Source: an archaeon (lineage in GTDB: Archaea > Micrarchaeota > Micrarchaeia > Norongarragalinales > UBA97). From it: 64,000 nucleotides of DNA. Under the pieces are notes generated by a model. The model saw only the letters and a program-made list of their open reading frames with translations, was not told the DNA's origin and made no database searches. The translations under genes were made by a program, and so were the position numbers. The stretch lies in contig JAGVFW010000004.1 of NCBI GenBank assembly GCA_020057405.1, forward strand, positions 96,001 through 160,000, given 5' to 3'. Of this stretch, positions 6,972-31,059 are shown piece by piece (positions within the stretch are counted from its first letter, which is position 1; every line of letters begins with the position of its first letter).

Positions 6972-6972
6972 G

Positions 6973-7797: not shown

Positions 7798-7872
7798 CGG
7801 GCCCGGTGGGATTTGAACCCACGGCATCCTGCTTAGAAGGCAGGCGCTCTGTCCAGGCTGAGCTACGGGCCC
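7798..7872 (-). tRNA. tRNA-Arg(TCT)
   Basis: GGGCCCG/CGGGCCC acceptor, CCTGC-CT TCT AA-GCAGG. Confidence 0.95.
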
Positions 7873-7926
7873 ACGATAATGTTGTGGAGGCGAGCGGTTT
7901 TATTCCCGCCCTCCCTTTCCTTATTC

Positions 7927-9210: not shown

Positions 9211-9231
9211 ATAAGCTCTTGCGATACCTAT

Positions 9232-9870: not shown

Positions 9871-9927
9871 AAAAGAAAACCATGCCCAGCTAGTTAAGTT
9901 AATTAATTCTTGAGGGCAGATTAGCGC

Positions 9928-15793: not shown

Positions 15794-15841
15794 ACAAAAG
15801 CCATTGGTTCCGGCTTCTTAAGCATATTGAAAGCCGCGCGG

Positions 15842-16333: not shown

Positions 16334-16345
16334 TTAAAACCACCC

Positions 16346-16546
16346 TCAAGATTTGGCTGACTTTTCCTTATGCTTGTTGAATGCGAGCCTAAACCGCTCG
16401 AGACGTTCGAGGTAATGCCGCTCTTGCTCTGGAGTTCGTTCGAGCTGCGGGGTTTTTGCCAGAAACTCTTTGAACTTGCTTTTGTCCGCCGCTTCCTTCA
16501 CCGTCTTTTTGCGGTGCAGTTCTCGGATTTCCTCTTCCTCGTCCAT
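16346..16546 (-). CDS. Small charged hypothetical protein
   Basis: 66-aa ORF co-oriented directly upstream of ppiA; TTTAAA upstream. Confidence 0.6.
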   Translation of the reverse strand: MDEEEEIRELHRKKTVKEAADKSKFKEFLAKTPQLERTPEQERHYLERLERFRLAFNKHKEKSAKS

Positions 16547-16625
16547 CGGTAGTCAATTCACTCAAACCACGAATTTAAACTCTTGCAAAACGCTTTTAAG
16601 TTCGCTGAAGCCTACTCAAGTCATA

Positions 16626-17558
16626 ATGAAGTTGTTTGCCGCCGTGGTGGGCGTCTTATTTGCACTCCAGCTTGCAGCAGCCTATCCCCAGCTAGTCGTC
16701 ACTGTTGACGCGCCAAGGTACGCTTCGGCACTTGAGCCGATGCTCTCGGTGCCTGAACTCAAGGGATTCATTGGCGACTCGGCAACAATTCTGGTGCGCG
16801 CCGGGAGCGACCGCGCGTTCTTCAAGATAGAGGGCGGGAAGGCAACTTACTTGGCAACCGCCAACGGCGACGCCGACTTCACCGCTTCGGGCTCGATGGA
16901 TGCCTGGCTCACGCTCCTTAACGCGGTTGACAAGACACTCACGTTCAAGCGCCTGCTCGCAGCGCGTGCCATTGTAATCAGCGCGCGCGACGGGGTAAAG
17001 CAGGCTGCGATAAACGCCGGAATGTCAAGTGGTGCTCTTTCAGTTGATGCCATCAAGGACGGCGACTCAATGCGCTATGACGGCGAAGGGCGCATCCGCA
17101 TGGAAAACAACAGACCAATACTGCAAGTCGGCAACGACAACTTCCTGCTCAACCGCTTTGGCGGGATTGTCGGCGGCCTCCCGAAAGGCTACGACCGCTT
17201 TTCACAGCCGCCCGCAAAGCTCGGCCTCTATTTTGAAAAGCCCCCTGGCGTGCTCGCGCAGTTTCCCGGACTCATCTACGACACGGTCTCCAATCACCCG
17301 TCGCCCAACATGATGGGACCGTGGAATGTCTTCAAGATTAACCCGGGGCTCATTGGCCCGGACCAGATACTCAAGCTAAACCCGGGATTAATCGGGCCGG
17401 CAGACATGGCGCTCCTCAACCCGAACCTGCGTGGCCCTGCGGAATTCGCGCACATGATGGGCATCGGCGCGCACAGCCGCTCGGCGCAGGCGCTGCAGGA
17501 CCGGGGAATGCTTGGCAACTTTGACTTGTCAAACCACAATCGATGGGGACAACGCTAA
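16626..17558 (+). CDS. Secreted protein with SCP2-like segment and C-terminal NPGLIGP repeats
   Basis: Signal peptide MKLFAAVVGVLFALQLAAA; ADFTASGSMDAWLTLL; 14-aa periodic repeats. Confidence 0.7.
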   Translation: MKLFAAVVGVLFALQLAAAYPQLVVTVDAPRYASALEPMLSVPELKGFIGDSATILVRAGSDRAFFKIEGGKATYLATANGDADFTASGSMDAWLTLLNAVDKTLTFKRLLAARAIVISARDGVKQAAINAGMSSGALSVDAIKDGDSMRYDGEGRIRMENNRPILQVGNDNFLLNRFGGIVGGLPKGYDRFSQPPAKLGLYFEKPPGVLAQFPGLIYDTVSNHPSPNMMGPWNVFKINPGLIGPDQILKLNPGLIGPADMALLNPNLRGPAEFAHMMGIGAHSRSAQALQDRGMLGNFDLSNHNRWGQR

Positions 17559-18005
17559 ATGAAGCTCGGCACAATAATCATCGTCCTCTTCGTCTTGGCA
17601 CTAATCGCGGCAGGCGCATTCATCTTCCTCGCCTCAACGGGGGGAAGCGGTGAACCGCAGCCTTACGCCGAGGAAGTGAGCCTGGAGCAGCGCAGCGCGA
17701 ATGCGGGCGTGATTTCGGCCCTTGCGGCCGGCGGAATCGACAGTGCGATGGCCGACGTTAGCGCAAACCAAGTCTACATTGCATACGACTTGCCCGCCGG
17801 GACTGACGCGGACATAATGCAGCAGTTTGCGCTCGGCGTTGCCGGCAGCGCTGCTGAGAACTCCAAAAACATCGTTGTGCTCCAATACCAGGACGAGAAG
17901 CCCAAGACTGCCTGGACGGTCTCTGCCGCGGACTTTGACGCGTTCATGCGCAAGCAGATTACTGCAGAACAGCTGGACGCCAGGATTGCGAAGCAAAACT
18001 TCTAA
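17559..18005 (+). CDS. Membrane-anchored hypothetical protein
   Basis: Abuts upstream stop codon; N-terminal TM. Confidence 0.75.
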   Translation: MKLGTIIIVLFVLALIAAGAFIFLASTGGSGEPQPYAEEVSLEQRSANAGVISALAAGGIDSAMADVSANQVYIAYDLPAGTDADIMQQFALGVAGSAAENSKNIVVLQYQDEKPKTAWTVSAADFDAFMRKQITAEQLDARIAKQNF

Positions 18006-18086: not shown

Positions 18087-19664
18087 ATGAAACCAGTTGA
18101 AACTTCGTTGCCCCAGGGGTCTGCAGAAACATCCTCGGCCCTAAAGTCAGTCGTTAAGGGCGCGGGACTCGTGCTCGTCGGCCTGGCAATCTCAAAGGCA
18201 ATGTCTTACTTCCTTCGCCTAGTCTTAGCCAGGCTGGGTCCCGAGCAGTACGGCCTCTTCACACTCGGCCTCACGGTTTTTGACTTTGCCACGTTTCTCA
18301 CTTCACTGAGCCTCCTTACTGCGGTGCTGCGTTACGCGCCCGAGTACCACGCGCTTGGCAACAACAAGCGGCTCTTAGGCGTTTTTTCCGACTCGGTCAA
18401 GCTCATAATCGCCGCAGGCATCGCCGGCTCTGCAATCCTCTACTTTTCTGCAGACGCGATTTCAACAATCGTCTTTCACCAGCCCGCTCTTGCGGGCATC
18501 CTGCGCATAATGTCGTTTGCAATAGTGTTCTACAACCTCAGCGGCGTAGTCACGTCGCTTGCTCGCGCGCTTAACCGCGTGGAGTATGAAGTCGCGCTAA
18601 AGATGGTTGTCGAAAACGCATTCAAGCTCGCCTTGGCCGCAACGGCGGTTGCCATGGGCCTTGGTCTCGCGGGCGTCACGGCTGGATTCTCAATAGCCAT
18701 TTTCCTCACCTGCCTCGTTTCATTCTACGCAGTTGAAAAGAAGGTCTACCCGTTTGTTGCAAAGGCAACTTCGGGCGCCCCCATCGAAAGCACGGCAAGG
18801 CAGCTTCTGACGTTCTCGCTTCCCCTCACCGCGGACGGCCTGGTGTGGATGGTGGCGGCGTCGGCTGACATCATAGTCATAGGCATTTTCCTGGGCGCAG
18901 CACAAGTGGGCATCTACGGCACGGCGCTCCCGACCGCAGCGTTCCTGACCGTGATACCGCTTGCGCTGCAGACTATGTTCAAGCCACTCACCGTCGGGCT
19001 GCTTGCCAAGAAGAAGACCGAGGACGTCAAGCGAGTTTACTACACGCTTAGCAAGTGGGTATTCGCGGCCAACCTCGCGGTTCTTTTGCCGGTCGTCGTT
19101 TTCGCCACCCAGATAATCGCTATTCTCTTCGGCCGCGACTACGGCCCGGCGGCCCTGCCACTCTCGATACTCTCGACTGGCTTTTTCTTAAGCCAGCTCT
19201 TGCGCATTGGCGAGGAAATCGTGGTCGCATACGACAGAACCGTGTTTTTGCTTGCAAACGCGGTCGTGGCAGTTGCGATTGCTGGGCTTGCCCAATTGTT
19301 GCTCGTCCCGCATTACGGGATTGCTGGAGCTGCAGTCGGCGCGGCGCTGACTTGGCTCGCCATGGGCTTCGGCATTTGGTATAAGGCAAGGAGGCTCACC
19401 GGGTTTTCGCCTTTTGCCGCATCCAAGTACCTGCACATCACTCTTTCGGGCGGGATTGCCGTCGGTGCGTCCTACTTGCTCGCCAAGTACTTCCTTGCCG
19501 CCGACGTCTTTGGCGCAATCGTGATACTCGTTTCATTCGTAGCGGTTTACGCAATTTGCCTGCGCGGCCTTAAAGTCGCCGACGAGTATGACATCGAGGT
19601 CGGCGAGGCCATCACGCGCAAGCTCGGCATTAAAATCAACGTCAGGAAAATCCTGACAGCGTGA
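18087..19664 (+). CDS. Wzx/AglR-like oligosaccharide flippase (MOP superfamily)
   Basis: 12-14 TMs; LARLGPEQYG, DIIVIG.FLG...VGIY, L.P.YGI.GAA. Confidence 0.9.
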   Translation: MKPVETSLPQGSAETSSALKSVVKGAGLVLVGLAISKAMSYFLRLVLARLGPEQYGLFTLGLTVFDFATFLTSLSLLTAVLRYAPEYHALGNNKRLLGVFSDSVKLIIAAGIAGSAILYFSADAISTIVFHQPALAGILRIMSFAIVFYNLSGVVTSLARALNRVEYEVALKMVVENAFKLALAATAVAMGLGLAGVTAGFSIAIFLTCLVSFYAVEKKVYPFVAKATSGAPIESTARQLLTFSLPLTADGLVWMVAASADIIVIGIFLGAAQVGIYGTALPTAAFLTVIPLALQTMFKPLTVGLLAKKKTEDVKRVYYTLSKWVFAANLAVLLPVVVFATQIIAILFGRDYGPAALPLSILSTGFFLSQLLRIGEEIVVAYDRTVFLLANAVVAVAIAGLAQLLLVPHYGIAGAAVGAALTWLAMGFGIWYKARRLTGFSPFAASKYLHITLSGGIAVGASYLLAKYFLAADVFGAIVILVSFVAVYAICLRGLKVADEYDIEVGEAITRKLGIKINVRKILTA

Positions 19665-20770
19665 TGATAGTGGCTAACGCTATTCCGGAAAACCTGCGGC
19701 CTGACCGCGTCTCCCTAGTTGCAATCGACTTTCTTAACCGCTCAAGCAGCCTTTTTTTCAACTGCCTCCTTGACGGCCACCCCCAAATCATTCACGGCTT
19801 TGCGCAAAACTATCCTGCCGGGGCAAGCTCGCGGCAAGAAGCGGCCAGGGCCGCTTTTGAAAATCTTGCGTCTAGCATGATTTGGCATTACTCCCCCCGC
19901 GACTTTCCTTTCTCGTTTAGGGAGTTCGAACCGCTTTTCAACCAGTACGCCGACGAATTCGGCTTCTCGCAAAAAAGCGCGTTTGTCGCGGCGCACTACG
20001 CCTTGGCAAAACTGCTTGGAAAAGACTTAAAGAAAATCAAGTGGATTGCGTACCACCCGCACGGCCACTCAAATATCGGCAGTGTAATGCGCGCAAAGCG
20101 GGACTTTCCGAACCAAAAACTGATTCTCACGGTTCGCGACCCGCGCGCGGCCATTTGGGGAAACCTGCGGGCGGACAAAAAAGTGCCCCTCTACGAACTT
20201 TTGCCGCAGGCTCCGGCCTACTGGTGGGCTTACAAACGCATTTTTGCAAGGAACGAAATTAGGGTCGTGAGGCACGAGGACATTCACACTAATTATCCAC
20301 GCGAGCGGGTAGCCTTGACGGAATTTTTGCAGATTCACGACGAGGCTAGCCTTGACCAAGCCACGCTATTCGGCAAGCCCTGGGATGGGAGTGCGAAAAA
20401 CGCGGTCCTCTCGAACACTGGCCGCAAGTCAAGCAGGCCCGACCCGGCTTTTGTCACAGACGACTGGAAGCAGGGGCTCTCGCGTTTTGACTTGTTCTTG
20501 ATACAGGCGGCTCTTGCGGGTTTCATGCGCGAGTTTGGTTACTTGCCGTACAGCAAGCCCGACGGGAAGTGCAAGCAAGTCGAGCTTGACTATGGCGCGC
20601 TGTGGAATGAATTCACTGCAAAAACTGTTCCTGCCTCGCTTCGTCCCGCCCTTGGCGGCGTCGCCTCAACACCTTTTATAAGCGTGGTTCCAAAAACAAT
20701 TATTCACGCCATGATAGCGGCGCGGACGGCGCGCAATTACCTGGCGCTTTACTCCGCAGTCACAAGCTGA
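19661..20770 (+). CDS. Sulfotransferase-fold protein (candidate phosphoramidate transferase)
   Basis: RSSS.....LLDGHPQI 5'-PSB-like motif, FP..K.I..VRDPRA 3'-PB motif, VRHEDI. Confidence 0.75.
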   Translation: MMIVANAIPENLRPDRVSLVAIDFLNRSSSLFFNCLLDGHPQIIHGFAQNYPAGASSRQEAARAAFENLASSMIWHYSPRDFPFSFREFEPLFNQYADEFGFSQKSAFVAAHYALAKLLGKDLKKIKWIAYHPHGHSNIGSVMRAKRDFPNQKLILTVRDPRAAIWGNLRADKKVPLYELLPQAPAYWWAYKRIFARNEIRVVRHEDIHTNYPRERVALTEFLQIHDEASLDQATLFGKPWDGSAKNAVLSNTGRKSSRPDPAFVTDDWKQGLSRFDLFLIQAALAGFMREFGYLPYSKPDGKCKQVELDYGALWNEFTAKTVPASLRPALGGVASTPFISVVPKTIIHAMIAARTARNYLALYSAVTS

Positions 20771-20805
20771 TGGCGGCGTAGGGGAAACACGGAAGTTGGG
20801 ATTTA

Positions 20806-21588
20806 ATGAGCGAAAAACTTTACTCAAGCGAGTGGGACTACACGTCTCAGGCCAAGTTCTACGACAGGCGGCCCAACTACGCCCCAAAGGCGATTGAGCG
20901 CATTTGCAAGCACGTTGGCGCAAGCACTCACGGCAACTACGCTGTTGCAGACATCGGCGCCGGCACGGGTAACCTCACGCTCTTGCTTGCCAACAAAGCG
21001 GCTAAAGTAATTGCAATCGAGCCCAACGACGCCATGCGCGAGATAGGCAGGGGCAAGACAAAGGCGATGCCCAATGTCGAGTGGCGGGTGGGCAGCGGCG
21101 AGAAAACCGGATTGCCTTCAGGCGCGGTCGATTTGGCCGCTTTTGGCTCTTCGTTTAACACAACCGACAGGGACGCGTCACTGCGCGAGTCGCACCGCAT
21201 TCTCAAGCCGGAAGGCTTCTTCACCTGCATGTGGAACAACCGCGACCTGCAGGATGGGCCGCAAAAGCGCGTCGAGGAAATCATCCGCGAGTTCGTTCCA
21301 GACTACAGCCACGGCACGCGGCGCGAGCAGCAGGCCGACGTCATCATCGCAAGCCGCCTCTTCAACAACCTCTACTACCTGGAAGAACCACAGGCGGTCA
21401 AGATGAGTGTCGAGAATTTTGTCGACGGCTGGCGCTCGGTCAAGAACAAGTACTGGGACCCGGCGACCCCAGAGGGCAAGGAACTGCTTTCAAAGATTAT
21501 CGCCAGGATAGAGTCGGAGTTTGCGGACACCCCGGAACTGCAAATCACTTACGTCACCCGCGCGTGGACTGCAAAAAGAGAGGACTGA
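20806..21588 (+). CDS. Class I SAM methyltransferase, Cj1419-like
   Basis: VADIGAGTG, EPNDAMRE, FGSSFN, CMWN.RDL, W.SVKN.YWD. Confidence 0.88.
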   Translation: MSEKLYSSEWDYTSQAKFYDRRPNYAPKAIERICKHVGASTHGNYAVADIGAGTGNLTLLLANKAAKVIAIEPNDAMREIGRGKTKAMPNVEWRVGSGEKTGLPSGAVDLAAFGSSFNTTDRDASLRESHRILKPEGFFTCMWNNRDLQDGPQKRVEEIIREFVPDYSHGTRREQQADVIIASRLFNNLYYLEEPQAVKMSVENFVDGWRSVKNKYWDPATPEGKELLSKIIARIESEFADTPELQITYVTRAWTAKRED

Positions 21589-21596
21589 ACTTAGCC

Positions 21597-22388
21597 ATGG
21601 CCGGAGAGCGAAGCGAACTACAAGCGCTCGCCGGTGCCCTGCAAACGGCAGGCGATGCGATTCTAAAAGTGCGTTCGCGGGCATTCTCACTAAAGCGCGA
21701 CAAGAGTCCCGTCACGGCAGCCGACCTAGCCTCGTCAAAAATTCTTGAGCGCGAGCTGTCGAAGACGGGCATTCCGGTATGCTCGGAAGAGCGCCGCGTG
21801 AGGGCAGCCAAGGAAATGTGGTTCGTCGACCCGCTTGACGGCACGAAGAACTACATCGAAGGCAACCCCGGCTACTGCGTGATGGCAGGCCTTCTAAGGA
21901 ATGGGAAAATAGTCATTGCCGGAATTTACGTTCCAAGCACCCGCGAGCTTTACTACGCCGAGCTAGGCAAGGGCGCGTTCCTGCTTAAAGGCGGCAAGCG
22001 GACGCGCTTGAAGGCAAGCGGCAGGACGCGTCCGTCTCTTTTACGCGTAATCAAAAGCCGCCACCACCACACTGCAACCGACGAGGCCTTCATCAAGCGC
22101 GCTGGCCTGGGCCGCCAAATCGGGATTGGTAGCGCGGGCCTCAAGCTTTGCGCAATCGCGTCAGGCAAGGCGGAGCTTTACGTCAATTTCGACGGCCTTT
22201 GGGCCTGGGACATTGCCGGACCGCAGCTTGTGCTTGAGGAAGCGGGCGGCAGCGTCACCGACGCGACAGGCCACGCCCTGCGCTACCCGCCGGCTGGAAT
22301 GCGCTTTGCCGGAGGAATCATCGCGTTAAACAAGGCAAACGCCGAAATACTATCGCTTGCTAAAAAGCATTGGAAGGAAATTAAATGA
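21597..22388 (+). CDS. cysQ: CysQ-like 3'(2'),5'-bisphosphate nucleotidase (inositol monophosphatase family)
   Basis: K.DKSPVTAAD, SEE, WFVDPLDGTKNY, GSAGLK, WDIAG...VLEEAGG. Confidence 0.88.
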   Translation: MAGERSELQALAGALQTAGDAILKVRSRAFSLKRDKSPVTAADLASSKILERELSKTGIPVCSEERRVRAAKEMWFVDPLDGTKNYIEGNPGYCVMAGLLRNGKIVIAGIYVPSTRELYYAELGKGAFLLKGGKRTRLKASGRTRPSLLRVIKSRHHHTATDEAFIKRAGLGRQIGIGSAGLKLCAIASGKAELYVNFDGLWAWDIAGPQLVLEEAGGSVTDATGHALRYPPAGMRFAGGIIALNKANAEILSLAKKHWKEIK

Positions 22389-22900
22389 AGGGACTCCTAG
22401 TCTGGATTACAGGGCTCGCTGGATCCGGCAAGACTACGCTTGCGGCTATGGTTGAAAGCGGCCTTCGGGCCAAGGGCGTGCGCACGGTGCACGTCGACGG
22501 CGACGCTGTCCGCGAGATTTTTGGAAACGAGCTCGGCTTCCACCGGGAAGACCGGCTGAAAAACGCCTGGCGCATCGCCCGGCTCTGCAGTTTCCTCACA
22601 AGCCAGGGGTTTGCAGTCGTCTGCTCGACAGTGTCCCTCTTCCACGAAATCCACGGCTACAACCGCAAAACAAATTCAGGCTACCTTGAAGTCCACCTGG
22701 CAGTCAGCGCGGCCGAGCTTACCCGAAGGAACAAGAAGGGATTGTACGGCAAGGGCGGAAAGCAGGTTGTCGGCAGGGACATTGAACCCGAGTTTCCAAA
22801 GAAGCCCGACATGATGTTGGCAAACGACAACAAAACCCAGCTTGGGCAAAACGCCGGGGCAATAATTTCGAAAGCCGCGAAAATGGCTGCGGGCAAGTGA
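22385..22900 (+). CDS. APS-kinase-like P-loop kinase (Cj1415-like CDP-amidate 3'-kinase)
   Basis: WITGLAGSGKTT, DGDAVR, RN.KGLY, VVG.DI..EFP; clustered with Cj1416-18-like genes. Confidence 0.85.
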   Translation: MKGLLVWITGLAGSGKTTLAAMVESGLRAKGVRTVHVDGDAVREIFGNELGFHREDRLKNAWRIARLCSFLTSQGFAVVCSTVSLFHEIHGYNRKTNSGYLEVHLAVSAAELTRRNKKGLYGKGGKQVVGRDIEPEFPKKPDMMLANDNKTQLGQNAGAIISKAAKMAAGK

Positions 22901-25278
22901 GTCGAATGGTGCCGTTCAAGTTCTCTACAAAAGCCGAAACGCTCAAGCGGCTCGCGCCCCTGCTGAAAGTCGGCGCGGTGCTGCCGCAACACCACTTCAC
23001 GGTTGGCGAATGGAAGAAAAACAAGCCTGCGATTGCGGCCAAAACGCTAAAAGAATTGGCGGACGCCAAAAAACTCGCAGTGCGCTCAAGCGCAGTTAAT
23101 GAAGACTCGCACTCAAGCTCGATGGCAGGCAACTTCACAAGCTGCCTCAATGTGCAGCCCAATGGGGCGAGCCTTGAAAAAGCGGTTGAAACCGTAATCG
23201 CAAGCTATGGAAACGGCGGGCACGCAAGCGACGCCAACCAGGTCCTCGTGCAGCCGCAGATTGAGAACCTGGAAGTGAGCGGCGTCGCCTTCACCTGCGA
23301 CCTTGACACGGGCGCACCTTACTACATCGTCAACTACGACGACATTTCCGGCAAGACCGACGTCGTAACGTCAGGCACTAGCAACAAGGTCAAGATGTTC
23401 GTCTACAGCAAGTTTTACGGCCAAAAACCAACGAGCCCCAACCTCGCGCTCATCATCTCCGCAGTGCGAGAGCTTGAGAAGGCAACCGGAAGCGAAGCGA
23501 TTGACATTGAGTTCGCCGTGTCAAAAGGCAAGTTTTTTGTTTTGCAGGTGCGGCCGATTACTACCGCTGGCAGGAAGCGCAACTATTCGCAGGAAGCGCT
23601 AAAGCAGGAACTCGACAACATCAAACGCTTCATTCGCGAGAACAAAAGGTCGTTCCCCAACTTGTTCGGCAGTCGAAACGCCTACGGCATCATGCCCGAC
23701 TGGAACCCGGCGGAAATAGTTGGCGTCAACCCCAAGCCCCTGGCGCTCTCGATGTACAAGGAGATTATCACGGACTACATCTGGCCCCTAAGCAGAAAAG
23801 AAGTTGGGTACAAGGACGTCGGCTACCACCCGGGCCTCTGCTCGCTCTCCGGCAAGCCCTACATCGACATTCGCCTCAGCTTAAGCACGTTCCTTGCCGC
23901 AGACATTCCGGATGCGCTTGCGCAAAAGCTCGTAGACTTCCAGCTAAACAAGCTGCAGCTCAACCCCATGCTTCACGACAAAATCGAGTTCCAGATTGCC
24001 CACACTGCCTACAGCCTCAACTTCAAGCAATCGGCGGAGGAACTGCTCAAAAACGGCTTTTCAAAAGAGGAAGTCGAAATTCTACGAAAGTGCCTCCTAA
24101 AGCTTACGAACAACATCCTTGCAGAGCGGGTCACAAGCGTCGGCAGCCAGATGGCACTCGTTTCGCACCTCGATGCCAAGCGCAGGAAAATCAGGCTCTC
24201 CGACATTCCGATTGAAGTGAAAATAGCGCAACTCGTGCACGACTGCAAGTACTACGGCACCCTGCCGTTTTCCAAGCTCGCTCGCTTTGCATTCATCGCA
24301 AGCATTTTGATGCGCTCGCTTCGCGAGCGGGGAGTGATTACGCAGGCGCAGTACGACGGGTTCTTCAGCTCAATAGAGACGGTCGCGACCGAATTCGTCC
24401 GCGACATTGGCGAGATGAAGGCAGGCAAAATGACGCGAGCTGAATTCTTGAACCGCTACGGCCACCTGCGGCCGGGCACTTACGACATCACGTCACTCAC
24501 TTACGCTGAGAACCTTGAGAACTACATTGACCTCAAGCACTACGACTCTGGCAAGACACACGAGAAGTTCGCTTTCGACGCGGCGACCATAAGGCGCATT
24601 GACGGCGAGCTAAAGGCGCAAGGCGTCGAGGCAAACGCGCACGAGCTGCTTAAGTTCGTAGAGGAAGCGACAATCGGCCGCGAGAAGTCGAAACTTGAGT
24701 TCACCAAGAACCTTAGCCTCGCGCTTGACTACTGCACGCAATACCTCCACAGGTACGGAATCGACAGGGAGGACGCGGCGTTTCTGGAAATCGGCGACTT
24801 GCTTGCCGCAAGCCACGACAGCAAGCTCTCAACCGCTAAAGGAGACCTCGAGGCGAAGATTGGGAGCCACAAGGCAAGCTATGAGATGACGAAGGCAGTG
24901 CGCCTCCCGCCACTCATTTTCGACGAGAAGAATGTCGAGTACTTCCACTACCGCGATGACATGCCGAACTTCGTTTCCGACAAGCGGGTTAGCGCAGAAG
25001 CAGCCTACGTTGCCGCAAACACCACCGACGGCGCGTTGTTGGACGGAAAGATTGCACTCATCGAAAACGCCGACCCGGGCTTTGACTGGATATTCAGCCA
25101 CAACATCAAGGGGCTCGTCACGAAATTCGGCGGGGCCAACTCGCACATGGCAATCCGGTCCGCAGAGTTCGGCCTCCCTGCCGCAATCGGCTGCGGGCAA
25201 GTGCTTTTCGCCTACCTCAAGGACGCACGCAAGATAGAAATAGACTGCAGCGTCAAGCAAATAAGGAAAATACAATGA
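22897..25278 (+). CDS. L-glutamine kinase, Cj1418-like (PEP-utiliser/PPDK family)
   Basis: TKAETL, VRSSA..ED....S.AG ATP-grasp, MPDWNPAEIVG, YGHLRPGTYDI, ADPGFDWIF, ANSHMAIR phospho-His domain; no pyruvate-binding barrel. Confidence 0.88.
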   Translation: MSRMVPFKFSTKAETLKRLAPLLKVGAVLPQHHFTVGEWKKNKPAIAAKTLKELADAKKLAVRSSAVNEDSHSSSMAGNFTSCLNVQPNGASLEKAVETVIASYGNGGHASDANQVLVQPQIENLEVSGVAFTCDLDTGAPYYIVNYDDISGKTDVVTSGTSNKVKMFVYSKFYGQKPTSPNLALIISAVRELEKATGSEAIDIEFAVSKGKFFVLQVRPITTAGRKRNYSQEALKQELDNIKRFIRENKRSFPNLFGSRNAYGIMPDWNPAEIVGVNPKPLALSMYKEIITDYIWPLSRKEVGYKDVGYHPGLCSLSGKPYIDIRLSLSTFLAADIPDALAQKLVDFQLNKLQLNPMLHDKIEFQIAHTAYSLNFKQSAEELLKNGFSKEEVEILRKCLLKLTNNILAERVTSVGSQMALVSHLDAKRRKIRLSDIPIEVKIAQLVHDCKYYGTLPFSKLARFAFIASILMRSLRERGVITQAQYDGFFSSIETVATEFVRDIGEMKAGKMTRAEFLNRYGHLRPGTYDITSLTYAENLENYIDLKHYDSGKTHEKFAFDAATIRRIDGELKAQGVEANAHELLKFVEEATIGREKSKLEFTKNLSLALDYCTQYLHRYGIDREDAAFLEIGDLLAASHDSKLSTAKGDLEAKIGSHKASYEMTKAVRLPPLIFDEKNVEYFHYRDDMPNFVSDKRVSAEAAYVAANTTDGALLDGKIALIENADPGFDWIFSHNIKGLVTKFGGANSHMAIRSAEFGLPAAIGCGQVLFAYLKDARKIEIDCSVKQIRKIQ

Positions 25279-25919
25279 AAATGAAAATCGGCCTCTCGAT
25301 GCGGATGGTGCGCTGCCAAAAGCCCGGCCACACTACGGGGAAGGGCGAAGTGCGCCACGCCATTTCGCAGGATTGGATGACGCTTTTGCAAAAGCTGGGC
25401 TTTACTCCCGTTTTGTTGCCGTCTGACCTCAAGGACATTCCCCAAATTGACGGCGTGATTCTCACAAACGGCAACAACGTCGACCCGCGCGCCTACGGCG
25501 GGAAGCCCCTTGACGACGTTTTTGCCGAGCGCGATGCTTTTGAGGCAAGGCTCGCCAAGATGGCACTCGGCAAGAAAATCCCGATTCTTGGCGCGTGCCG
25601 GGGCAGCCAGATGCTAAACGTGTTTTTCGGCGGAAAGCTAAAGCAACACGTGGCGGGCCACAGCGGCACGACGCACGCCATTGCACTGCGGAACGGCAAG
25701 CGCGTGACAGTCAACTCTTACCACGACCACGGCATTGCCGCCGACGGGCTTGGCAATTACCTAGAACCGCTTGCGTTTAGCGACGACGGCTTCATTGAGG
25801 CGTTCGGCCACAAAAGCGTACCCGCCATGGGCATCATGTGGCACCCCGAGCGCGGGCCGACTGCGTTTAACGACAGTCTAGTCAAGAGATTTTTCACTCG
25901 CCGAGGAGAACTCATTTGA
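25275..25919 (+). CDS. Class I glutamine amidotransferase (peptidase C26), Cj1417-like gamma-glutamyl-CDP-amidate hydrolase
   Basis: PILGACRG.Q, VNSYH, MWHPER. Confidence 0.88.
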   Translation: MKMKIGLSMRMVRCQKPGHTTGKGEVRHAISQDWMTLLQKLGFTPVLLPSDLKDIPQIDGVILTNGNNVDPRAYGGKPLDDVFAERDAFEARLAKMALGKKIPILGACRGSQMLNVFFGGKLKQHVAGHSGTTHAIALRNGKRVTVNSYHDHGIAADGLGNYLEPLAFSDDGFIEAFGHKSVPAMGIMWHPERGPTAFNDSLVKRFFTRRGELI

Positions 25920-26713
25920 AGGCAATCATCCTTGCCGCAGGCAGGGGCACGCGCTTGGGCGATTACGCAAAAGGAATGCCGAAAGCCATGCTCGATTTTG
26001 CAGGCAAGCCCCTGCTTGCAACGCAGCTGAAGGTGCTCCGCGCTGCAGGCGTCAATGACATTACGGTCGTCACGGGTTTTGCCTCCAAAAAAATTGCCTT
26101 TGATGGCGTAAATTACGTCCATAACCCTGATTTTGCGACAACTAACATGGTGGAATCACTCATCGTTGCGCGCGATGAGCTAAAGGCCGGGGCACTCGTG
26201 TGCTATGGCGACATAATCTACGAGCCTAGGGTGCTAAAGGCAGTGATGAAGGCAAAGGCCGACGCCGTAGTTGCAGTTGACTACGACTATCTCGACTATT
26301 GGAAGGCAAGGCTTGGGGACGAATGGGAAAATGACACTGAATCCCTGCGGGTCGTAAACGGCAAAATTACCGAACTAGGCGGGTCAAACCCGTCGGCCAA
26401 GGAGCGGCAATGCCGTTACGTCGGGCTCCTCAAGTTCTCTGCAAACGGGGCAAAGTTGTTGCTTGAGACGTACTACGCTGAAAAGCGGCGCCATTGGGAA
26501 TCCGAGAAGCCTTGGCTTAACTCTCCGTCATTCAAGCAGGCATTCATGACCGACCTGCTAAACGCGTTTATCGCGCGGGGCAATGAAGTCAGGCCAGTGG
26601 AGATAGAGCGCGGGTGGATGGAGTTTGACACTGCTGATGACTATGAAAAGGCAAGCGCGTGGCTGGCTGATGGCAGCATCAAGCGCTTTTTCGACCCACG
26701 GACGCTGGCGTGA
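25916..26713 (+). CDS. LicC-family cytidylyltransferase, Cj1416-like
   Basis: AIILAAGRGTRL...PK, NP....TNMVESL, YGDIIY, WMEFDT..DY. Confidence 0.88.
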   Translation: MKAIILAAGRGTRLGDYAKGMPKAMLDFAGKPLLATQLKVLRAAGVNDITVVTGFASKKIAFDGVNYVHNPDFATTNMVESLIVARDELKAGALVCYGDIIYEPRVLKAVMKAKADAVVAVDYDYLDYWKARLGDEWENDTESLRVVNGKITELGGSNPSAKERQCRYVGLLKFSANGAKLLLETYYAEKRRHWESEKPWLNSPSFKQAFMTDLLNAFIARGNEVRPVEIERGWMEFDTADDYEKASAWLADGSIKRFFDPRTLA

Positions 26714-26758
26714 TAGGCTGGACGGGGTTTAAAAGGATTTTCTGGCCCAACTAAGTTT

Positions 26759-28489
26759 ATGAACATACTCGGCGTCTACCCCGTTTGGGGCCACGACACC
26801 TGCGCGGCAATAATCAAGGACGGCAGGCTAGTCGCGGCTGCGGAGGAAGAGCGCTTCACCCGCCACAAGCACGCCCTGCCGCGGCCCCATAGCATGACGA
26901 ACATGATTGACCAGTCCGTCGAGCCCTCGTTTCACTCAATAAAATTCTGCCTCGACTACGCGGGCCTCACCATGGACGACATTGACGCAATTGCAGTGCC
27001 TTGGAACCCCGACCTCATCGTCAAGCAAAACTTTACCAGCGGCTCAAGGCTCATTCCAGAACTCGCCGCAAAGGCGCTCATGCTGCCCGCGGGACGGCTT
27101 TGGCGCTACAAGAAACTCTTCCGCAAGGGCGCGTCACTAAAGCAGGCGCTCTACTACGACTTTTTCATGGAACCATCGCTCTCGGGATATTCGAGCCTTC
27201 CTGAAATAAGGTATTACGAGCACCACCGCGCCCACGCCGCGACCGCTTTCTACGCGTCAGGATTCGAGAACGCGGCGGTCGTGACTGCAGATGGAGCGGG
27301 AGAGTCAAACGCAACAGTCGCCTGGCACGGGAAGGGAAACACGCTAACTAAACTCCGCGAGAAAATGAAGGACCAGTCAATAGGCAATTTCTACACGCTC
27401 GCCACCGAATACCTCAACATGGGCTACGGTGCCGAAGGAAAGACAATGGGCCTCTCGCCCTACGGCAAGCCCAACGCCAAAATCAGGGAAAAACTCCTCC
27501 GCAGGCTTAACCCGGAAACGGGCGACTGGTACGAAGGCAAGCTTGAGACCCTAAACGAGGCTGAAATGGGCTTTCCAGCGCGCACCAACCAGGCGGTTAC
27601 TTCGCCGCCCTATAGCGACCTTGCCTACGAGGCAGAGGAGATTCTTGAGGCGGCGATGGTGAAAGTGGCCAAGTGGACGGTGGAGGCTACGGGAGAAAGC
27701 AAGGTCTGCGTGGCAGGCGGCGTCGGGTTAAGCTGCACGACAAACTCGCGCATCATCAACGCGGGCTTTGCAGACGACATATTCATCTTCCCGGCAGCAA
27801 ACGACGGCGGCACCGCAATTGGGGCGGCCCTTGAATGCGCCGCCGAAATGGGGGAGAAAGTCAAGTTCAAATTCGAGCACGCTTACTGGGGCCCCGAGTA
27901 CTCTGACGCGCAAATTGAAGTTGCGCTAAAGCAGAGCAACGCGAGGTTTGAAGAAACAACTGACCCCGGCGGGGCAGCTGCAGACCTGATTGCAAAAGGA
28001 AAAGTAATCGGCTGGTTCCAAGGCAGGATGGAAATCGGCCCCCGCGCGCTTGGGAACCGAAGCATCCTGGCAGACCCGACGCGCACAGACGCGTGGGAAA
28101 AAGTGAATGAAATCAAGCTGCGGGAAAGGTGGAGGCCGCTCGCTCCAAGCATGCTTTACGAGGCCAAAGACGAGTACCTGGAAAACGCGCGCGACTCACC
28201 CTTCATGATACTCGCATTCCAAGTACCGAAAGAAAAACACAAGGAAATCCCGGCGGTCGTACACGTCGACGGCAGCACCCGACCGCAAACCGTCAAGAAG
28301 ACGACCAACGAAAAATACTGGAACCTAATCAAAAAACTCGAGCAAAACAACGGCACGCCAGTCACACTGAACACCAGCTTCAATGTCGGGCCGGAACCAA
28401 TCGTCTGCACGCCAAAAGACGCGCTGCGAACGTTCTTCACATCCCAGCTTGACGCAATCGTAATCGGGAACTACGTGCTAGAAAAGTGA
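26759..28489 (+). CDS. NodU/CmcH-family O-carbamoyltransferase, paralogue 1
   Basis: HD, EEERF.R.KH, EHH.AHA, DG.GE, EGKTMGL, GPRALGNRSILA, RP.APS, HVDGS.RPQ, NTSFN. Confidence 0.95.
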   Translation: MNILGVYPVWGHDTCAAIIKDGRLVAAAEEERFTRHKHALPRPHSMTNMIDQSVEPSFHSIKFCLDYAGLTMDDIDAIAVPWNPDLIVKQNFTSGSRLIPELAAKALMLPAGRLWRYKKLFRKGASLKQALYYDFFMEPSLSGYSSLPEIRYYEHHRAHAATAFYASGFENAAVVTADGAGESNATVAWHGKGNTLTKLREKMKDQSIGNFYTLATEYLNMGYGAEGKTMGLSPYGKPNAKIREKLLRRLNPETGDWYEGKLETLNEAEMGFPARTNQAVTSPPYSDLAYEAEEILEAAMVKVAKWTVEATGESKVCVAGGVGLSCTTNSRIINAGFADDIFIFPAANDGGTAIGAALECAAEMGEKVKFKFEHAYWGPEYSDAQIEVALKQSNARFEETTDPGGAAADLIAKGKVIGWFQGRMEIGPRALGNRSILADPTRTDAWEKVNEIKLRERWRPLAPSMLYEAKDEYLENARDSPFMILAFQVPKEKHKEIPAVVHVDGSTRPQTVKKTTNEKYWNLIKKLEQNNGTPVTLNTSFNVGPEPIVCTPKDALRTFFTSQLDAIVIGNYVLEK

Positions 28490-28496
28490 TTTGAAA

Positions 28497-30170
28497 ATGG
28501 CTAACGTACTCGGCATTTGCGTTGCTTCGGAAGTCCAGGAACGGCATGATACTGGCGCCGCTCTAGTCAAGGACGGCAAGCTCATTGCGGCGGTTGAGGA
28601 AGAGCGCTTCACGCGCAAGAAGCACGAAACGGCCCCGCCCGTGCTCTCGGTAAAGTACTGCCTTGCGGCGGGTGGCCTGACGATGGATGACATCGACGGC
28701 ATTGCAATCATGTGGCGCGACGTGCAGGCGCCTTATGCGGATGTGCTAAACGCAGTTCTGCGCTACAACAAGGCCAAAAACGTGCTTTTGCGCAAGCTCG
28801 GCACTGACTTGAAGAAACTTGCTGGCGGCTACCGCGACCCGCAGCTTGACTTCCTGCGCGAATACAGCCGCTCGCCTCCAGTCACTTACTACGAACACCA
28901 CTTGACGCACGCCGCGACTGCTTTCTACCCGTCGGGCTTCAAAGACGCGGCGATAGTGACTGTCGACGGCACAGGCGAGTGGAACTCGACAGTCGCTTGG
29001 AAGGGCGGCGCCGACGGCATCACAAAACTAAAGGAAAAGCCCAACTCGCAGTCGCTCGGATTCTTTTACTCGGCAGTGACAAAGCACATCCGCATGGGAA
29101 GCCAGGCCGAAGGAAAGACCATGGGCCTGGCGCCGTACGGCAAGCACGACCCCGACATCTACTCGCGGCTTACCAACTTTATCAACCCGAACAAGGGCGA
29201 ATGGTACGAGGGCGCGACGACACGCGACATCAACCAGGCCGACCTCGGCTTTCCCCAACGGCTTGATTCTGAAAAAGCCACTAGCGAAAAGTACGCCAAC
29301 CTCGCCTACAACGCGCAGGAAATCCTAGAAGAGGCGCTCCTAAAAGTTTCCAAGTGGACGGTTGACGAAACCGGTTGCAAAAACATCTGCCTCTCTGGCG
29401 GAGTTGCGCTAAACTGCACGACGAACTCGCGCATCATCAACGCGGGCTTTGCGGATGACATTTTCATCTTCCCGGCAGCAAACGACGGCGGCACCGCAAT
29501 TGGGGCGGCGCTCCAGCTTGCTGAAGAACTTGGAGACAAGACGGCATTCCGGATGGAAAGCCCATACTGGGGCCCCGAATTCACCGACGAGCAAATTGAG
29601 GAAGCACTCAAGGAAAGCGGCGCGACCTTTGAAGAGACTGGCGACCCAAGTGGTTCTGCGGCGGACCTTATTGCAAAAGGCAAAATCATTTGCTGGTTCC
29701 AAGGCAGGATGGAAATCGGCCCCCGCGCGCTTGGGAACCGCAGCATCCTGGCAGACCCGACGCGCACAGACGTGTGGGAGCGCGTAAACGAGGTGAAGCT
29801 GCGCGAACAATGGCGGCCGCTCGCTCCAAGCATGCTCTACGAGGCCAAAGACGAGTACCTAGAAAACGCGCGCGACTCACCCTTCATGATACTCGCATTC
29901 CAAGTGCCAAAAAACAAGCACAAGGAAATCCCGGCGGTCGTACACGTCGACGGCAGCACCCGACCGCAAACCGTCAAGAAGACGACCAACGAAAAATACT
30001 GGAATCTCATCAAGAAACTCGAGCAAAACAACGGCACGCCGGTAACGATGAACACGAGCTTCAATGTCGGGCCGGAACCAATCGTCTGCACGCCAAAAGA
30101 CGCCATCCGGACGTTTAGGAACTCCAAGCTCGATGCCCTCGTCATCGGAAGCTATGTGCTGCAAAAGTAA
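28497..30170 (+). CDS. NodU/CmcH-family O-carbamoyltransferase, paralogue 2
   Basis: Same motif set; 3' half near-identical to paralogue 1. Confidence 0.95.
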   Translation: MANVLGICVASEVQERHDTGAALVKDGKLIAAVEEERFTRKKHETAPPVLSVKYCLAAGGLTMDDIDGIAIMWRDVQAPYADVLNAVLRYNKAKNVLLRKLGTDLKKLAGGYRDPQLDFLREYSRSPPVTYYEHHLTHAATAFYPSGFKDAAIVTVDGTGEWNSTVAWKGGADGITKLKEKPNSQSLGFFYSAVTKHIRMGSQAEGKTMGLAPYGKHDPDIYSRLTNFINPNKGEWYEGATTRDINQADLGFPQRLDSEKATSEKYANLAYNAQEILEEALLKVSKWTVDETGCKNICLSGGVALNCTTNSRIINAGFADDIFIFPAANDGGTAIGAALQLAEELGDKTAFRMESPYWGPEFTDEQIEEALKESGATFEETGDPSGSAADLIAKGKIICWFQGRMEIGPRALGNRSILADPTRTDVWERVNEVKLREQWRPLAPSMLYEAKDEYLENARDSPFMILAFQVPKNKHKEIPAVVHVDGSTRPQTVKKTTNEKYWNLIKKLEQNNGTPVTMNTSFNVGPEPIVCTPKDAIRTFRNSKLDALVIGSYVLQK

Positions 30171-30195: not shown

Positions 30196-31059
30196 TTAAC
30201 CTGAAAGACCGAGCGATAGCACAATTGCCAAAGGCACTAAGGCAAGAATGCCAACGGCGGCAGAAAAGTAGTGTGCGGGAATTCTCTCGGCGGCCCGGGT
30301 GATGACGTCCATGGTTCCAAGCGACACTGCGGCAGAAATTATGATGCCTAGCGCCGCGGCCTCGATTGAAATGCCCGAGAAGCCCTCGACAACGGCAAAC
30401 GCTGCAAAGGCGGCAAGAATCATCGGCGCGGCCATCAAAAAGCTGAGGCGAACGGCTTCGTCGGGCTTGAAACCCTGGGAAAGCAGGGCCGCCTGCGTGA
30501 TGCCGCTGCGGCTGATGCCCGGAAGCACGGCCAAGCCCTGGGCGAGGCCCGTAATGATTGAGGACTTTAGCGTGAGTCCTTCAGTCCGCTCAAGCGTTTC
30601 GGCCTCCGCTGGCGACGGGCCCTCGCGCGAGGCCCACATTATCACGGACATGGTAATCAAGAGAAGGCCGGCGGCTGCCAGGAGCCACTCGCCCTGAAGG
30701 CCGGCTAAGAAGTTCTTTGAAAGAAAGTAAAGCGGGAGGGCCAGGACTGCGGTTGCGGCAATTGAGACGAAAAGAAACGAGTGCTCCTTGTCGGGATAGT
30801 CGCGTGAGGAAAAATCAAGCAGGGAATAAGGGTTTGCGGCTGCCGACTTGACGGCGTTAAGGTACTCGTCGCGGTAGCGGTAGACTGCAGCGGCAAAGTC
30901 CCCCAAGTGCAGCATTAGGGCAAAGGCAAGCGCGTCCTTAAACGAAATGCCGAAAAGCCAGTTGCCTGCGAGGATGACTTGCGTCTTGCTGCTTACGGGA
31001 ATCCACGCGGTAATGCCCTGCACGACGGCCAAAACCGCCGCCTGGATTAAATCCACCAT
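30196..31059 (-). CDS. uppP: Undecaprenyl-diphosphate phosphatase (BacA/UppP family)
   Basis: VQGIT.WIPVSS, HLG, AQGLAVLPGISRSG, LSFLMA.P; note A in place of the usual catalytic E. Confidence 0.85.
   Translation of the reverse strand: MVDLIQAAVLAVVQGITAWIPVSSKTQVILAGNWLFGISFKDALAFALMLHLGDFAAAVYRYRDEYLNAVKSAAANPYSLLDFSSRDYPDKEHSFLFVSIAATAVLALPLYFLSKNFLAGLQGEWLLAAAGLLLITMSVIMWASREGPSPAEAETLERTEGLTLKSSIITGLAQGLAVLPGISRSGITQAALLSQGFKPDEAVRLSFLMAAPMILAAFAAFAVVEGFSGISIEAAALGIIISAAVSLGTMDVITRAAERIPAHYFSAAVGILALVPLAIVLSLGLSG

Follow-up and report, generated by a model that had tools for sequence, protein, structure and literature searches.

To our knowledge, O-methyl phosphoramidate (MeOPN) has been demonstrated chemically in Campylobacter only, and we know of no report of P-N groups on archaeal surface glycans. 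The MeOPN genes of C. jejuni NCTC 11168 specify an L-glutamine kinase (Cj1418), a cytidylyltransferase (Cj1416), a hydrolase (Cj1417) and a 3′-kinase (Cj1415), together with two methyltransferases (Cj1419 and Cj1420) and two transferases (Cj1421 and Cj1422). The donor is CDP-phosphoramidate 3′-phosphate, its enzymology being set out in sections of two papers (PMC11800397, PMC6429109). Part of a 2022 review called the glutamine kinase C. jejuni-specific (PMC9561416), while the transfer and methylation steps were described as open in passages of 2025 accounts (PMC12409886, PMC11800397). A second system of interest is PAPS-dependent sulfation, among whose members are the APS kinase CysC, the sulfotransferases TPST1/2, the CurM ST domain, StaL and the PAP phosphatase CysQ. 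Finally, the Borg elements of Methanoperedens carry, in a glycan-decoration region, structure-predicted relatives of Cj1416, Cj1417 and Cj1418; in the excerpts available of the preprint, the cluster has four genes, and a 3′-kinase, a methyltransferase, a sulfotransferase-fold protein and a CysQ-like partner go unmentioned (bioRxiv 10.1101/2024.11.05.622173).

The locus analysed here comes from a tiny, uncultured archaeon and lies in a stretch of 64,000 nucleotides (the window). A preliminary description had assigned positions 20806..26713 to a Campylobacter-type MeOPN pathway encoded by six gene types in a translationally coupled run next to a flippase. All six were found on the + strand by Pfam and NCBIfam matches. 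The features of the region are:

18087..19664, + strand, MOP-family (Wzx-like) flippase, 525 aa, about 12 hydrophobic segments (Pfam Polysacc_synt, E 1.5e-21; 12 TM-like windows)
19661..20770, + strand, sulfotransferase-fold protein ST369, 369 aa, soluble; candidate phosphoramidate transferase (AlphaFold/Foldseek)
20806..21588, + strand, SAM-dependent methyltransferase, Cj1419-position type (Methyltransf_11, E 5e-16)
21597..22388, + strand, CysQ-like 3′-phosphonucleotide phosphatase; candidate cytidine 3′,5′-bisphosphate phosphatase (Pfam Inositol_P, E 1.7e-46)
22385..22900, + strand, Cj1415-type kinase, predicted cytidine diphosphoramidate 3′-kinase (NF004041, 158.4 bits)
22897..25278, + strand, predicted Cj1418-type L-glutamine kinase, 793 aa; ATP-grasp and phosphohistidine swivel (NF004508, 888 bits)
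25275..25919, + strand, predicted Cj1417-type gamma-glutamyl-CDP-amidate hydrolase, class I amidotransferase / Peptidase_C26 (NF045546 best, 112.6 bits)
25916..26713, + strand, Cj1416-type, predicted CTP:phosphoglutamine cytidylyltransferase (NTP_transf_3, E 4e-19)
26759-28489 and 28491-30170, + strand, two NodU/CmcH-type carbamoyltransferases in tandem (Carbam_trans_N/Carbam_trans_C, E 1e-46 to 1e-68)
30196..31059, - strand, BacA/UppP-type polyprenyl-diphosphate phosphatase (lipid-carrier recycling; Pfam BacA, E 2.7e-42)

The archaeal cassette thus shares with C. jejuni the four donor-enzyme families, the methyltransferase of the Cj1419 position and the predicted product. It differs in having one methyltransferase rather than two, another gene order, two additional proteins (ST369 and the CysQ-like phosphatase) and no detected transferase of the Cj1421/Cj1422 type, and in its host, an archaeon that lacks a bacterial-type capsule. 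With the Borg genes it has the archaeal setting in common; unlike them, it is chromosomal and resides in a DPANN archaeon.

The genes of the cassette (19661-26713, + strand) follow closely on one another on an archaeal contig, with all frames intact. The coupling proposed in the preliminary description holds at four junctions, where start and stop overlap by 4 bases (CysQ-like/kinase, kinase/793-aa protein, 793-aa protein/amidotransferase and amidotransferase/cytidylyltransferase), while the junctions at 20770/20806 and 21588/21597 are short gaps. The flippase is indeed nearby, but it is separated from the methyltransferase by the ST369 gene, whose first 4 bases overlap the end of the flippase gene. 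This 369-aa gene belongs to the module; it is the most informative of its genes, and the range first described omits it. A flippase also adjoins the cassette in two related loci, L006 (28% identical) and L007, and in L006 so does a carbamoyltransferase relative (33–35% identical). Whether the BacA/UppP-type phosphatase is a module member is uncertain.

A Campylobacterales cluster (G423), in which the MeOPN transferase scores 750 bits (cut-off 600) and the hydrolase is an equivalog, served as reference; its gene order is transferase, methyltransferase (MTa), methyltransferase (MTb), kinase, hydrolase, cytidylyltransferase, 3′-kinase. The reciprocal search suggested in the preliminary description supported the relationship: reciprocal best hits link the four donor enzymes and the methyltransferase to this cluster (28–49% identical), all five G423 pathway proteins picking cassette genes as their best hits in the archaeon's own genome. 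The 793-aa protein scores 888 bits against NF004508 (cut-off 501, passed by none of 14 control genomes), spanning positions 6–788 of 789, and is 35.6% identical to the G423 enzyme. Its Pfam domains are PPDK_N and the PEP-utilizers mobile domain, with no PEP/pyruvate domain; the His of its SHMAIR motif is invariant in all 12 aligned relatives and matches the phosphohistidine region in alignments with proteins of the PEP synthase type. The model's own description is 'hypothetical protein', and it also goes by PRK05849; we take it to represent the Cj1418 type, given the presence of a 1096-bit member beside the true MeOPN transferase in G423.

The cytidylyltransferase has LicC (1jyk; E 9.5e-12) as its best PDB relative and is 28% identical to its G423 counterpart; there was no dedicated NCBIfam model among the best 25 of its 35 matches. 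For the hydrolase, NF045546 was the best NCBIfam match (112.6 bits), but the score stays short of the equivalog cut-off of 250, which the G423 protein exceeds (324.8 bits). This cut-off is narrow, as proteins from clear cassettes of Arcobacteraceae (189.8) and Helicobacter (237) also fall below it. The catalytic triad (Cys of CRG, His and Glu of WHxE) is kept in 5 of 5 aligned sequences. The 3′-kinase, with conserved P-loop and DGD motifs, matches Pfam APS_kinase, and exceeds the cut-off of NF004041 only (PRK05541 subfamily; 158.4 bits, cut-off 127); against canonical apsK (TIGR00455) it reaches 102.8 bits, under the cut-off of 138.7. The G423 kinase, 34–35% identical to it, scores 272 bits with NF004041. 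The cassette's 3′-kinase is the sole strong APS_kinase-family match in the archaeon's genome (103.3 bits); a second frame lies barely above the cut-off, across 42 positions. The preliminary description had raised the possibility that these proteins would group with true CysC or PEP synthase. Instead, in the NCBIfam scan the kinase falls in NF004041 rather than canonical apsK, and the 793-aa protein in NF004508 rather than PEP synthase. The donor pathway is well supported.

The label 'Campylobacter-type' proved too narrow. The glutamine kinase family is encoded in at least 781 species genomes, and in a tree the archaeal protein sits in a separate DPANN clade (SH-like support 99). Among 80 related loci, the cytidylyltransferase was present in 70, the hydrolase in 68, the 3′-kinase in 58 and a full-length methyltransferase in 49. 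Within the phylum the kinase is rare (2 of 301 sampled genomes, this one included), and the methyltransferase shares 49% identity with bacterial copies but 33% with its counterparts in two other DPANN loci. Both observations would fit bacterial contamination, or a cassette recently acquired from bacteria and without function in the archaeon. Such an origin is very improbable. The window also bears archaeal LSU rRNA (39910-43650), SSU rRNA (44071-45592) and RNase P RNA (36846-37114), the GC content of the cluster (0.56–0.57) is within the window's range (0.49–0.59), and the tightly packed frames are undamaged. Besides the DPANN clade, the other kinase-bearing genome of the phylum sample, from the same class (G229), carries all seven of these genes, rearranged.

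ST369 is confidently predicted to fold as a PAPS-type sulfotransferase. In its AlphaFold model (pLDDT 93.3, pTM 0.91), all of the 46 Foldseek matches listed (ranks 1–50) were PAPS sulfotransferases or PAP-bound enzymes of the same fold, the best being TPST1 (5wrj; E 2e-8), with a probability of 1.00 and target-normalised TM values of up to 0.59. The protein has the strand-loop-helix at its start, an RDPR motif and no TM-like windows, and its Pfam Sulfotransfer_3 score (19.9 bits) is below the cut-off of 27. A family HMM matched one of the 5592 frames in the archaeon's genome, ST369 itself. In the 80 loci, this HMM found ORFs in 25 (19 with E <1e-10 and six weak, E 4.7e-8 to 3e-4), tblastn recovering relatives in just 4. 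An ST369 relative adjoins the core in all four archaeal loci with context, and in the sole gammaproteobacterial locus inspected by Pfam (L010) a Sulfotransfer_1 gene lies between the methyltransferase and the kinase.

These features raise the question of whether the kinase, the CysQ-like phosphatase and ST369 might form an ordinary PAPS sulfation module that happens to adjoin a donor cassette whose transferase is elsewhere or of another kind. The fold, the strand-loop-helix and the RDPR motif would all fit, as would the kinase's APS_kinase match, the usual action of CysQ-like enzymes on PAP, and the match of distant ST369 relatives to the NoeE sulfotransferase model. We nevertheless regard such a mixed cluster as improbable. 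No ATP sulfurylase of Sat or CysD type was found in the archaeon's genome (90.6% complete, a figure that applies to every absence in it), and therefore no PAPS route is visible; the only cut-off that the kinase passes is that of NF004041, the family of the 3′-kinase in G423; and genes for the 3′-kinase and for ST369-like proteins accompany that of the glutamine kinase (in 58 and 25 of the 80 loci). ST369 could still be an ordinary sulfotransferase were PAPS obtained otherwise, given the incompleteness of the genome and the fact that DPANN archaea depend on hosts, to which they live attached. The parallel with sulfation lies in the 3′-phosphorylation of a nucleoside diphospho donor by an APS-kinase fold, a transferase of sulfotransferase fold and a CysQ-like phosphatase for the by-product. 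The points of difference are the missing ATP sulfurylase, the NF004041 kinase, an ST369 score under the Pfam cut-off, the linkage to glutamine kinase and, by prediction, a phosphoramidate as the group and cytidine as the nucleotide.

The model for the known MeOPN transferases (NF058596, CJJ1420_fam; Cj1421/Cj1422 type), which does detect its family in Campylobacterales, had no match in the archaeon's genome at E 0.01, nor in any of the 14 control genomes, and three transferase-like proteins of G423 gave no tblastn hits in the archaeon's genome (90.6% complete) at that same threshold. ST369 itself did not match NF058596 at E 10 (hmmscan), and hhalign gave probabilities of 0.2% and 1.3% for its comparison with the known family, i.e. 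no sequence relationship. As a weak hint, sulfotransferases ranked first with two aligners for a low-confidence model of a Campylobacterales transferase.

CysQ-like enzymes classically hydrolyse PAP. The listed ORF of the cassette's CysQ-like protein (21231-22388) overlaps the methyltransferase, and its start is likely the ATG at 21597. It scores 159 bits with Pfam Inositol_P (cut-off 27), shows DPLDGT and WD motifs, and has TIGR01331, the model for CysQ 3′(2′),5′-bisphosphate nucleotidase, as its best family (149.1 bits, below the equivalog cut-off of 228.8). A second Inositol_P gene is present elsewhere in the genome. CysQ-like genes occur in 10 of the 80 loci, 9 of which also have the 3′-kinase; in 4 of the 10 the gene is located between those of the hydrolase and the cytidylyltransferase. 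One protein, P0197, is a fusion of CysQ-like and sulfotransferase-like domains.

The methyltransferase, with a conserved GAGTG motif, is 49% identical over 258 aa to MTb of G423, which is encoded directly upstream of the glutamine kinase (reciprocal best hits), as against 33% to MTa. The resemblance to Cj1419 that had been suggested in the preliminary description is thus upheld, provided that the MTb and MTa positions are those of Cj1419 and Cj1420, as we assume from published gene order. That order implies that cj1420 is downstream of cj1421 and cj1422, and cj1415 downstream of cj1416 (PMC3907429). According to sections of one paper, Cj1419 and Cj1420 are without assigned function in C. jejuni, and the capsules of knockouts were unchanged (PMC11800397); O-methylation of the product is therefore no more than inferred here.

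Overall, the cassette probably encodes a sulfation-like "phosphoramidation" system that places a glutamine-derived activated phosphoramidate on a glycan. The steps from the kinase to the 3′-phospho donor are proposed from homology to characterised enzymes, and those of transfer, clean-up, methylation and export from fold and gene linkage only. The cytidylyltransferase would join the kinase product to CMP from CTP, yielding CDP-L-glutamine, from which the amidotransferase-fold hydrolase would take off glutamate to leave cytidine diphosphoramidate. The APS-kinase-like enzyme would then add a 3′-phosphate, making 3′-phospho-CDP-amidate, the cytidine analogue of PAPS. In the cytoplasm, soluble ST369 would pass the phosphoramidate to a sugar hydroxyl with release of cytidine 3′,5′-bisphosphate, which the CysQ-like phosphatase would convert to CMP, by analogy with the action of CysQ on PAP. 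The Cj1419-type methyltransferase would O-methylate the phosphoramidate group, and the neighbouring flippase would export the lipid-linked glycan, which the tandem carbamoyltransferases probably tailor further. We infer that a surface glycan is the target, and the S-layer glycan may be the one concerned.

A different CDP-activated product (for example a CDP-amino acid, or a phosphoramidate that is unmethylated or N-substituted) destined for a small molecule or a lipid would be compatible with several observations. The archaeal kinase, whose substrate might not be L-glutamine, shares only some 36% identity with its Campylobacterales counterpart and lies in a separate clade; the hydrolase does not reach the cut-off of its equivalog; and Pfam annotation revealed no glycosyltransferase in the cluster. 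Direct use of CDP-amino acids is possible: according to part of a preprint, CDP-threonine serves as a donor when C. difficile builds its flagellar glycan (bioRxiv 10.64898/2026.02.12.704994). Such a product is unlikely, however, because the full four-enzyme set is kept; the conserved Cys-His-Glu triad and the 3′-kinase fit hydrolysis to CDP-amidate followed by 3′-phosphorylation, and the genes are flanked by those for the flippase, the carbamoyltransferases and the polyprenyl-diphosphate phosphatase.

Returning to phosphoramidation, a broader proposal can be made tentatively, its chances falling a little short of even: that ST369-type enzymes are phosphoramidyl transferases acting on 3′-phospho-CDP-amidate with a dedicated CysQ-like clean-up, in parallel to sulfation, that they are widespread in bacteria and DPANN archaea, that P-N groups occur on archaeal surface glycans, and that the Campylobacter transferases are perhaps a version of the same fold with a long N-terminus. 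The family is widely distributed, and automatic 'glutamine kinase' labels and the Borg preprint precede this account. What the present locus offers is a compact, intact archaeal module in which a donor pathway accompanies a small soluble ST369 and a CysQ-like protein, i.e. testable candidates for the missing transfer chemistry, which should be easier to handle than the phase-variable Campylobacter transferases of ~600 aa. If the proposal is true, P-N glycan chemistry extends to archaea, and a second group-transfer reaction has taken over the logic of PAPS, sulfotransferase and CysQ; an unusual surface decoration of this kind in DPANN archaea might influence cell-cell contact or virus recognition.

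An uninterrupted run of genes was found on the plus strand of the window (18087-30170), with 4-base overlaps at five of its junctions. Family matches and coordinates confirmed the run noticed in the preliminary description, whose range (20806..26713) holds the donor-enzyme genes and the methyltransferase but stops short of ST369, a sulfotransferase-fold protein of 369 aa that is our candidate phosphoramidate transferase. The genes are as follows:

18087-19664, plus strand: MOP-type flippase
19661-20770, plus strand: ST369, 369 aa, matching Sulfotransfer_3 below threshold only
20806-21588, plus strand: SAM methyltransferase
21597 (probable start)-22388, plus strand: CysQ-like Inositol_P phosphatase
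22385-22900, plus strand: APS-kinase-like kinase (3′-kinase)
22897-25278, plus strand: 793-aa protein with PPDK_N and a phosphohistidine mobile domain, without the pyruvate domain
25275-25919, plus strand: class I amidotransferase (C26 protein; hydrolase)
25916-26713, plus strand: LicC-like nucleotidyltransferase (cytidylyltransferase)
26759-28489 and 28491-30170, plus strand: two tandem paralogous NodU/CmcH-type carbamoyltransferases, directly 3′ of the cassette

Archaeal 16S and 23S rRNA and an archaeal RNase P RNA lie in the same window as the cluster, over which GC content is uniform; the genome comprises 1.22 Mb in 17 contigs and is 90.6% complete. The archaeal LSU rRNA match (39910-43650, minus strand) spans 3741 bases against 2987 positions of the model, so the 23S gene, overlapped only by short ORFs (91-165 aa), holds ∼750 surplus bases, an intron or insertion. 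The gene run is headed by a 362-aa and a 148-aa ORF (16470-17558 and 17559-18005, plus strand), each with one hydrophobic segment; neither matched any family. A separate 2-Hacid_dh gene (31110-32165, plus strand) lies ∼4.4 kb 3′ of the cytidylyltransferase gene, just beyond the carbamoyltransferases and BacA, and a Nanoarchaeota locus (L007, 860-2503, minus strand) encodes a 547-aa protein that joins a CysQ-like domain to a D-2-hydroxyacid dehydrogenase; a functional tie between the CysQ-like and 2-Hacid_dh genes is possible.

From sequence comparison, a donor pathway as in C. jejuni, where the synthesis of O-methyl phosphoramidate (MeOPN) involves Cj1418 (glutamine kinase), Cj1416 (cytidylyltransferase), Cj1417 (hydrolase) and Cj1415 (3′-kinase), is strongly supported. 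The 793-aa protein scored 888 bits with NF004508, the Cj1418-type kinase family (cut-off 501, passed by none of 14 control genomes), and the 3′-kinase scored 158 bits with NF004041, the Cj1415-type family (cut-off 127), while staying under the canonical apsK cut-off. For the amidotransferase, the best NCBIfam family was that of the gamma-glutamyl-CDP-amidate hydrolase (NF045546), at 112.6 bits, under the cut-off of 250. PDB sequence searches with the four donor enzymes returned no Cj1415-Cj1418 entries, the matches being only PEP synthases, APS kinases, C26/GATase proteins and LicC-type enzymes. A reference cluster was chosen by searching 301 Campylobacterales genomes with the MeOPN transferase model NF058596, which left three above cut-off, G423 among them. 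Genes 1 to 8 of the G423 cluster encode, in turn, a transferase (NF058596, 750 bits), methyltransferases a and b, an NF004508 protein (1096 bits), an NF045546 protein (324.8 bits, above cut-off), a nucleotidyltransferase, a second transferase-like gene product and an NF004041 kinase (272 bits). The window proteins were 35.6% (793-aa kinase), 34.5% (hydrolase), 33.5% (3′-kinase) and 28% (cytidylyltransferase) identical to their counterparts in it. In the reverse search, all five G423 pathway proteins picked the window's gene as their best match in its genome, and the alignments kept the catalytic His, the Cys-His-Glu triad, the P-loop, the nucleotidyltransferase signature and the SAM motif. The donor-pathway reading of the preliminary description was right. 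ISP and FTGI motifs are typical of canonical APS kinases; at what would be the corresponding positions, the five aligned cassette kinases have S-L/M and V-V/I-G.

The window methyltransferase, likened earlier to Cj1419, was 49% identical to G423 methyltransferase b versus 33% to methyltransferase a, and the gene order presented in PMC3907429 places b at the Cj1419 position, so the likeness held. Cj1419 and Cj1420 are treated as being without assigned function in PMC11800397. The C. jejuni enzymology is taken here from published accounts (PMC11800397, PMC6429109, PMC3907429, PMC9561416); for the transfer step, this literature describes loss of MeOPN on deletion of Cj1421 or Cj1422. The G423 cluster (locus L102) has three NF058596-related genes (6346-8178, 8266-10104 and 15401-16705), one above cut-off, one whose C-terminal end matches just the N-terminal 120 positions of the model, and one without the initial ∼175 positions; a further full copy is found 17 kb away.

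No match to the Campylobacter transferase family was found among the proteins of the archaeal cluster or of its 90.6% complete genome. The ST369 model was of high quality (pLDDT 93.3, pTM 0.91), and all 46 Foldseek matches listed (ranks 1-50) were PAPS sulfotransferases or PAP-bound enzymes of that fold, including TPST1/2, the CurM ST domain and SULTs. The ST369 family has few members, with 246 representatives at E ≤ 0.001 and 32 at E ≤ 1e-30. Conserved among them are an RDPR motif, an invariant His and, following strand one, a GRSSS-type loop; no membrane segment was found in ST369, the sole family member among 5592 frames of the genome. A sulfotransferase fold might mean ordinary sulfation from PAPS made by a true CysC. 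This was rejected as the main reading, since a search of the 90.6% complete genome found no ATP sulfurylase of the Sat or CysD type and the cluster kinase falls under the apsK cut-off; as that kinase is also the only strong APS-kinase-family match, no PAPS route is visible in the genome. The cluster itself should make the 3′-phosphorylated cytidine donor that ST369 is proposed to use.

Gene linkage was assessed in 80 related loci around glutamine-kinase homologues. An HMM of the ST369 family gave ORF matches in 25 of them, 19 with E < 1e-10, and phmmer with the G423 transferase proteins gave ORF matches in one only (L050, from Helicobacter). A relative of ST369 adjoins the core in all four archaeal loci with context (the window, L103, Woesearchaeota L006 and Nanoarchaeota L007), and one is present in the short locus L005 too. 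In a gammaproteobacterial locus (L010), a 428-aa Sulfotransfer_1 protein (6549-7835, plus strand; E 1.6e-21) separates the methyltransferase from the glutamine kinase; the same locus additionally has an ST369-like gene upstream, on the opposite strand.

Kinship between ST369 and the Campylobacter-type transferases was sought by several routes. With hmmscan, ST369 and the NF058596-type transferase did not match, and hhalign gave probabilities of 0.2% against one Helicobacter transferase and 1.3% against a 7-sequence transferase alignment. The G423 transferase model, made from this shallow alignment, was poor (pLDDT 50.6), and with it Foldseek returned nothing at E 0.001 or better; most of its top ranks were sulfotransferases, at E 0.16-1.2. 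With VIA-align the top 10 were all sulfotransferases (Z 6.2-7.5, rmsd 4.5-5.2, 165-207 residues), values in the middling range of the tool. Both aligners thus placed PAPS sulfotransferases first, over residues ∼235-590, and the 7-sequence alignment has an invariant RD pair in an RDP-like motif. This hints at a shared fold: behind a long helical N-terminus, the Campylobacter transferases may have that of ST369.

The other partner genes were counted with tblastn.

Loci with relatives of each window protein (tblastn, 80 related loci; lower bounds, several loci being short contigs)
Glutamine kinase: 80 of 80
Cytidylyltransferase: at least 70
Hydrolase: at least 68
3′-kinase: at least 58
Methyltransferase: at least 49
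CysQ-like phosphatase: at least 10
ST369: at least 4
Carbamoyltransferases: at least 2
Flippase: at least 1
Two upstream orphan ORFs: 0

Nine of the 10 CysQ-positive loci have the 3′-kinase too. The CysQ-like gene separates the hydrolase gene from the cytidylyltransferase gene in L012, L025, L026 and L045, and directly follows the cytidylyltransferase in the Helicobacter locus; in a database protein of 657 aa (P0197), a CysQ-like Inositol_P domain (residues 13-241) is fused to a sulfotransferase-like domain (281-532). Another Inositol_P gene lies elsewhere in the archaeal genome, which makes the cluster copy an extra one. The only other kinase-positive genome in the phylum sample, G229, of the same class, has the same seven genes in another order (kinase, cytidylyltransferase, hydrolase, CysQ-like, 3′-kinase, methyltransferase, ST369), at 33-60% identity to those of the window. 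That the set has been kept despite rearrangement argues for a joint function of the seven genes.

The kinase family is scarce in this phylum (2 of 301 sampled genomes, including the present one). When one genome per species was scanned by pattern, at least 791 stretches came up, with at least 781 confirmed relatives in many bacterial phyla and DPANN archaea. Of 8000 candidates scored in a protein search, at least 3957 matched at E ≤ 1e-10. Many relatives, of ∼1000-1050 aa (about 1017), have an extra NTP_transf_3 domain; these cytidylyltransferase-kinase fusions are common in metagenomes. For a few relatives, one source already gives the annotation 'glutamine kinase'. Those closest to the 793-aa protein came from Micrarchaeia and other DPANN archaea (47-53% identity); together with the archaeal RNAs, this points to a small DPANN-type host, probably a member of the Micrarchaeota. 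In a FastTree phylogeny of 87 sequences (SH-like supports, midpoint rooting), the window kinase fell in a clade of 11 rows, 10 of them DPANN archaea by name; one Woesearchaeota sequence lay outside. Because this clade (SH-like support 99) is remote from the Campylobacterales enzymes, the archaeal module is an established DPANN lineage and no recent loan from Campylobacter. The reciprocal search and phylogeny proposed in the preliminary description thus gave reciprocal best matches and a separate DPANN clade; its designation of the pathway as Campylobacter-type proved too narrow, the kinase family being present in at least 781 species genomes.

Based on fold and gene linkage, ST369 would transfer phosphoramidate in the cytoplasm, releasing cytidine 3′,5′-bisphosphate, a by-product that the CysQ-like enzyme would remove; the methyltransferase would add the O-methyl group, the flippase would export the lipid-linked glycan, and the carbamoyltransferases may decorate it further. 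The position of the latter next to the cassette suggests O-carbamoylation of the same glycan; a carbamoyltransferase relative adjoins the cassette in L006 as well (2761-4527). No glycosyltransferase was found within the cluster. The minus strand 16 kb upstream of the module (362-3682) encodes a 1106-aa protein that has S-layer-like domains (S_layer_C, E 1.7e-17) and is conceivable as the glycan acceptor.

In the literature searched on phosphoramidate or MeOPN in archaea or DPANN, the only relevant item was a preprint on Borgs (bioRxiv 10.1101/2024.11.05.622173), which reports Cj1416-Cj1418-like genes on these elements, assigned by structure prediction; no listed title or abstract suggested a sulfotransferase-fold phosphoramidate transferase. 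The cassette adds one more member to a family that is widespread and chemically unstudied, and is no Campylobacter import. What it specifically offers is an intact seven-gene archaeal module with a sulfotransferase-fold and CysQ-like pair, in a genome where a PAPS route was not found, the set being conserved in a second genome.
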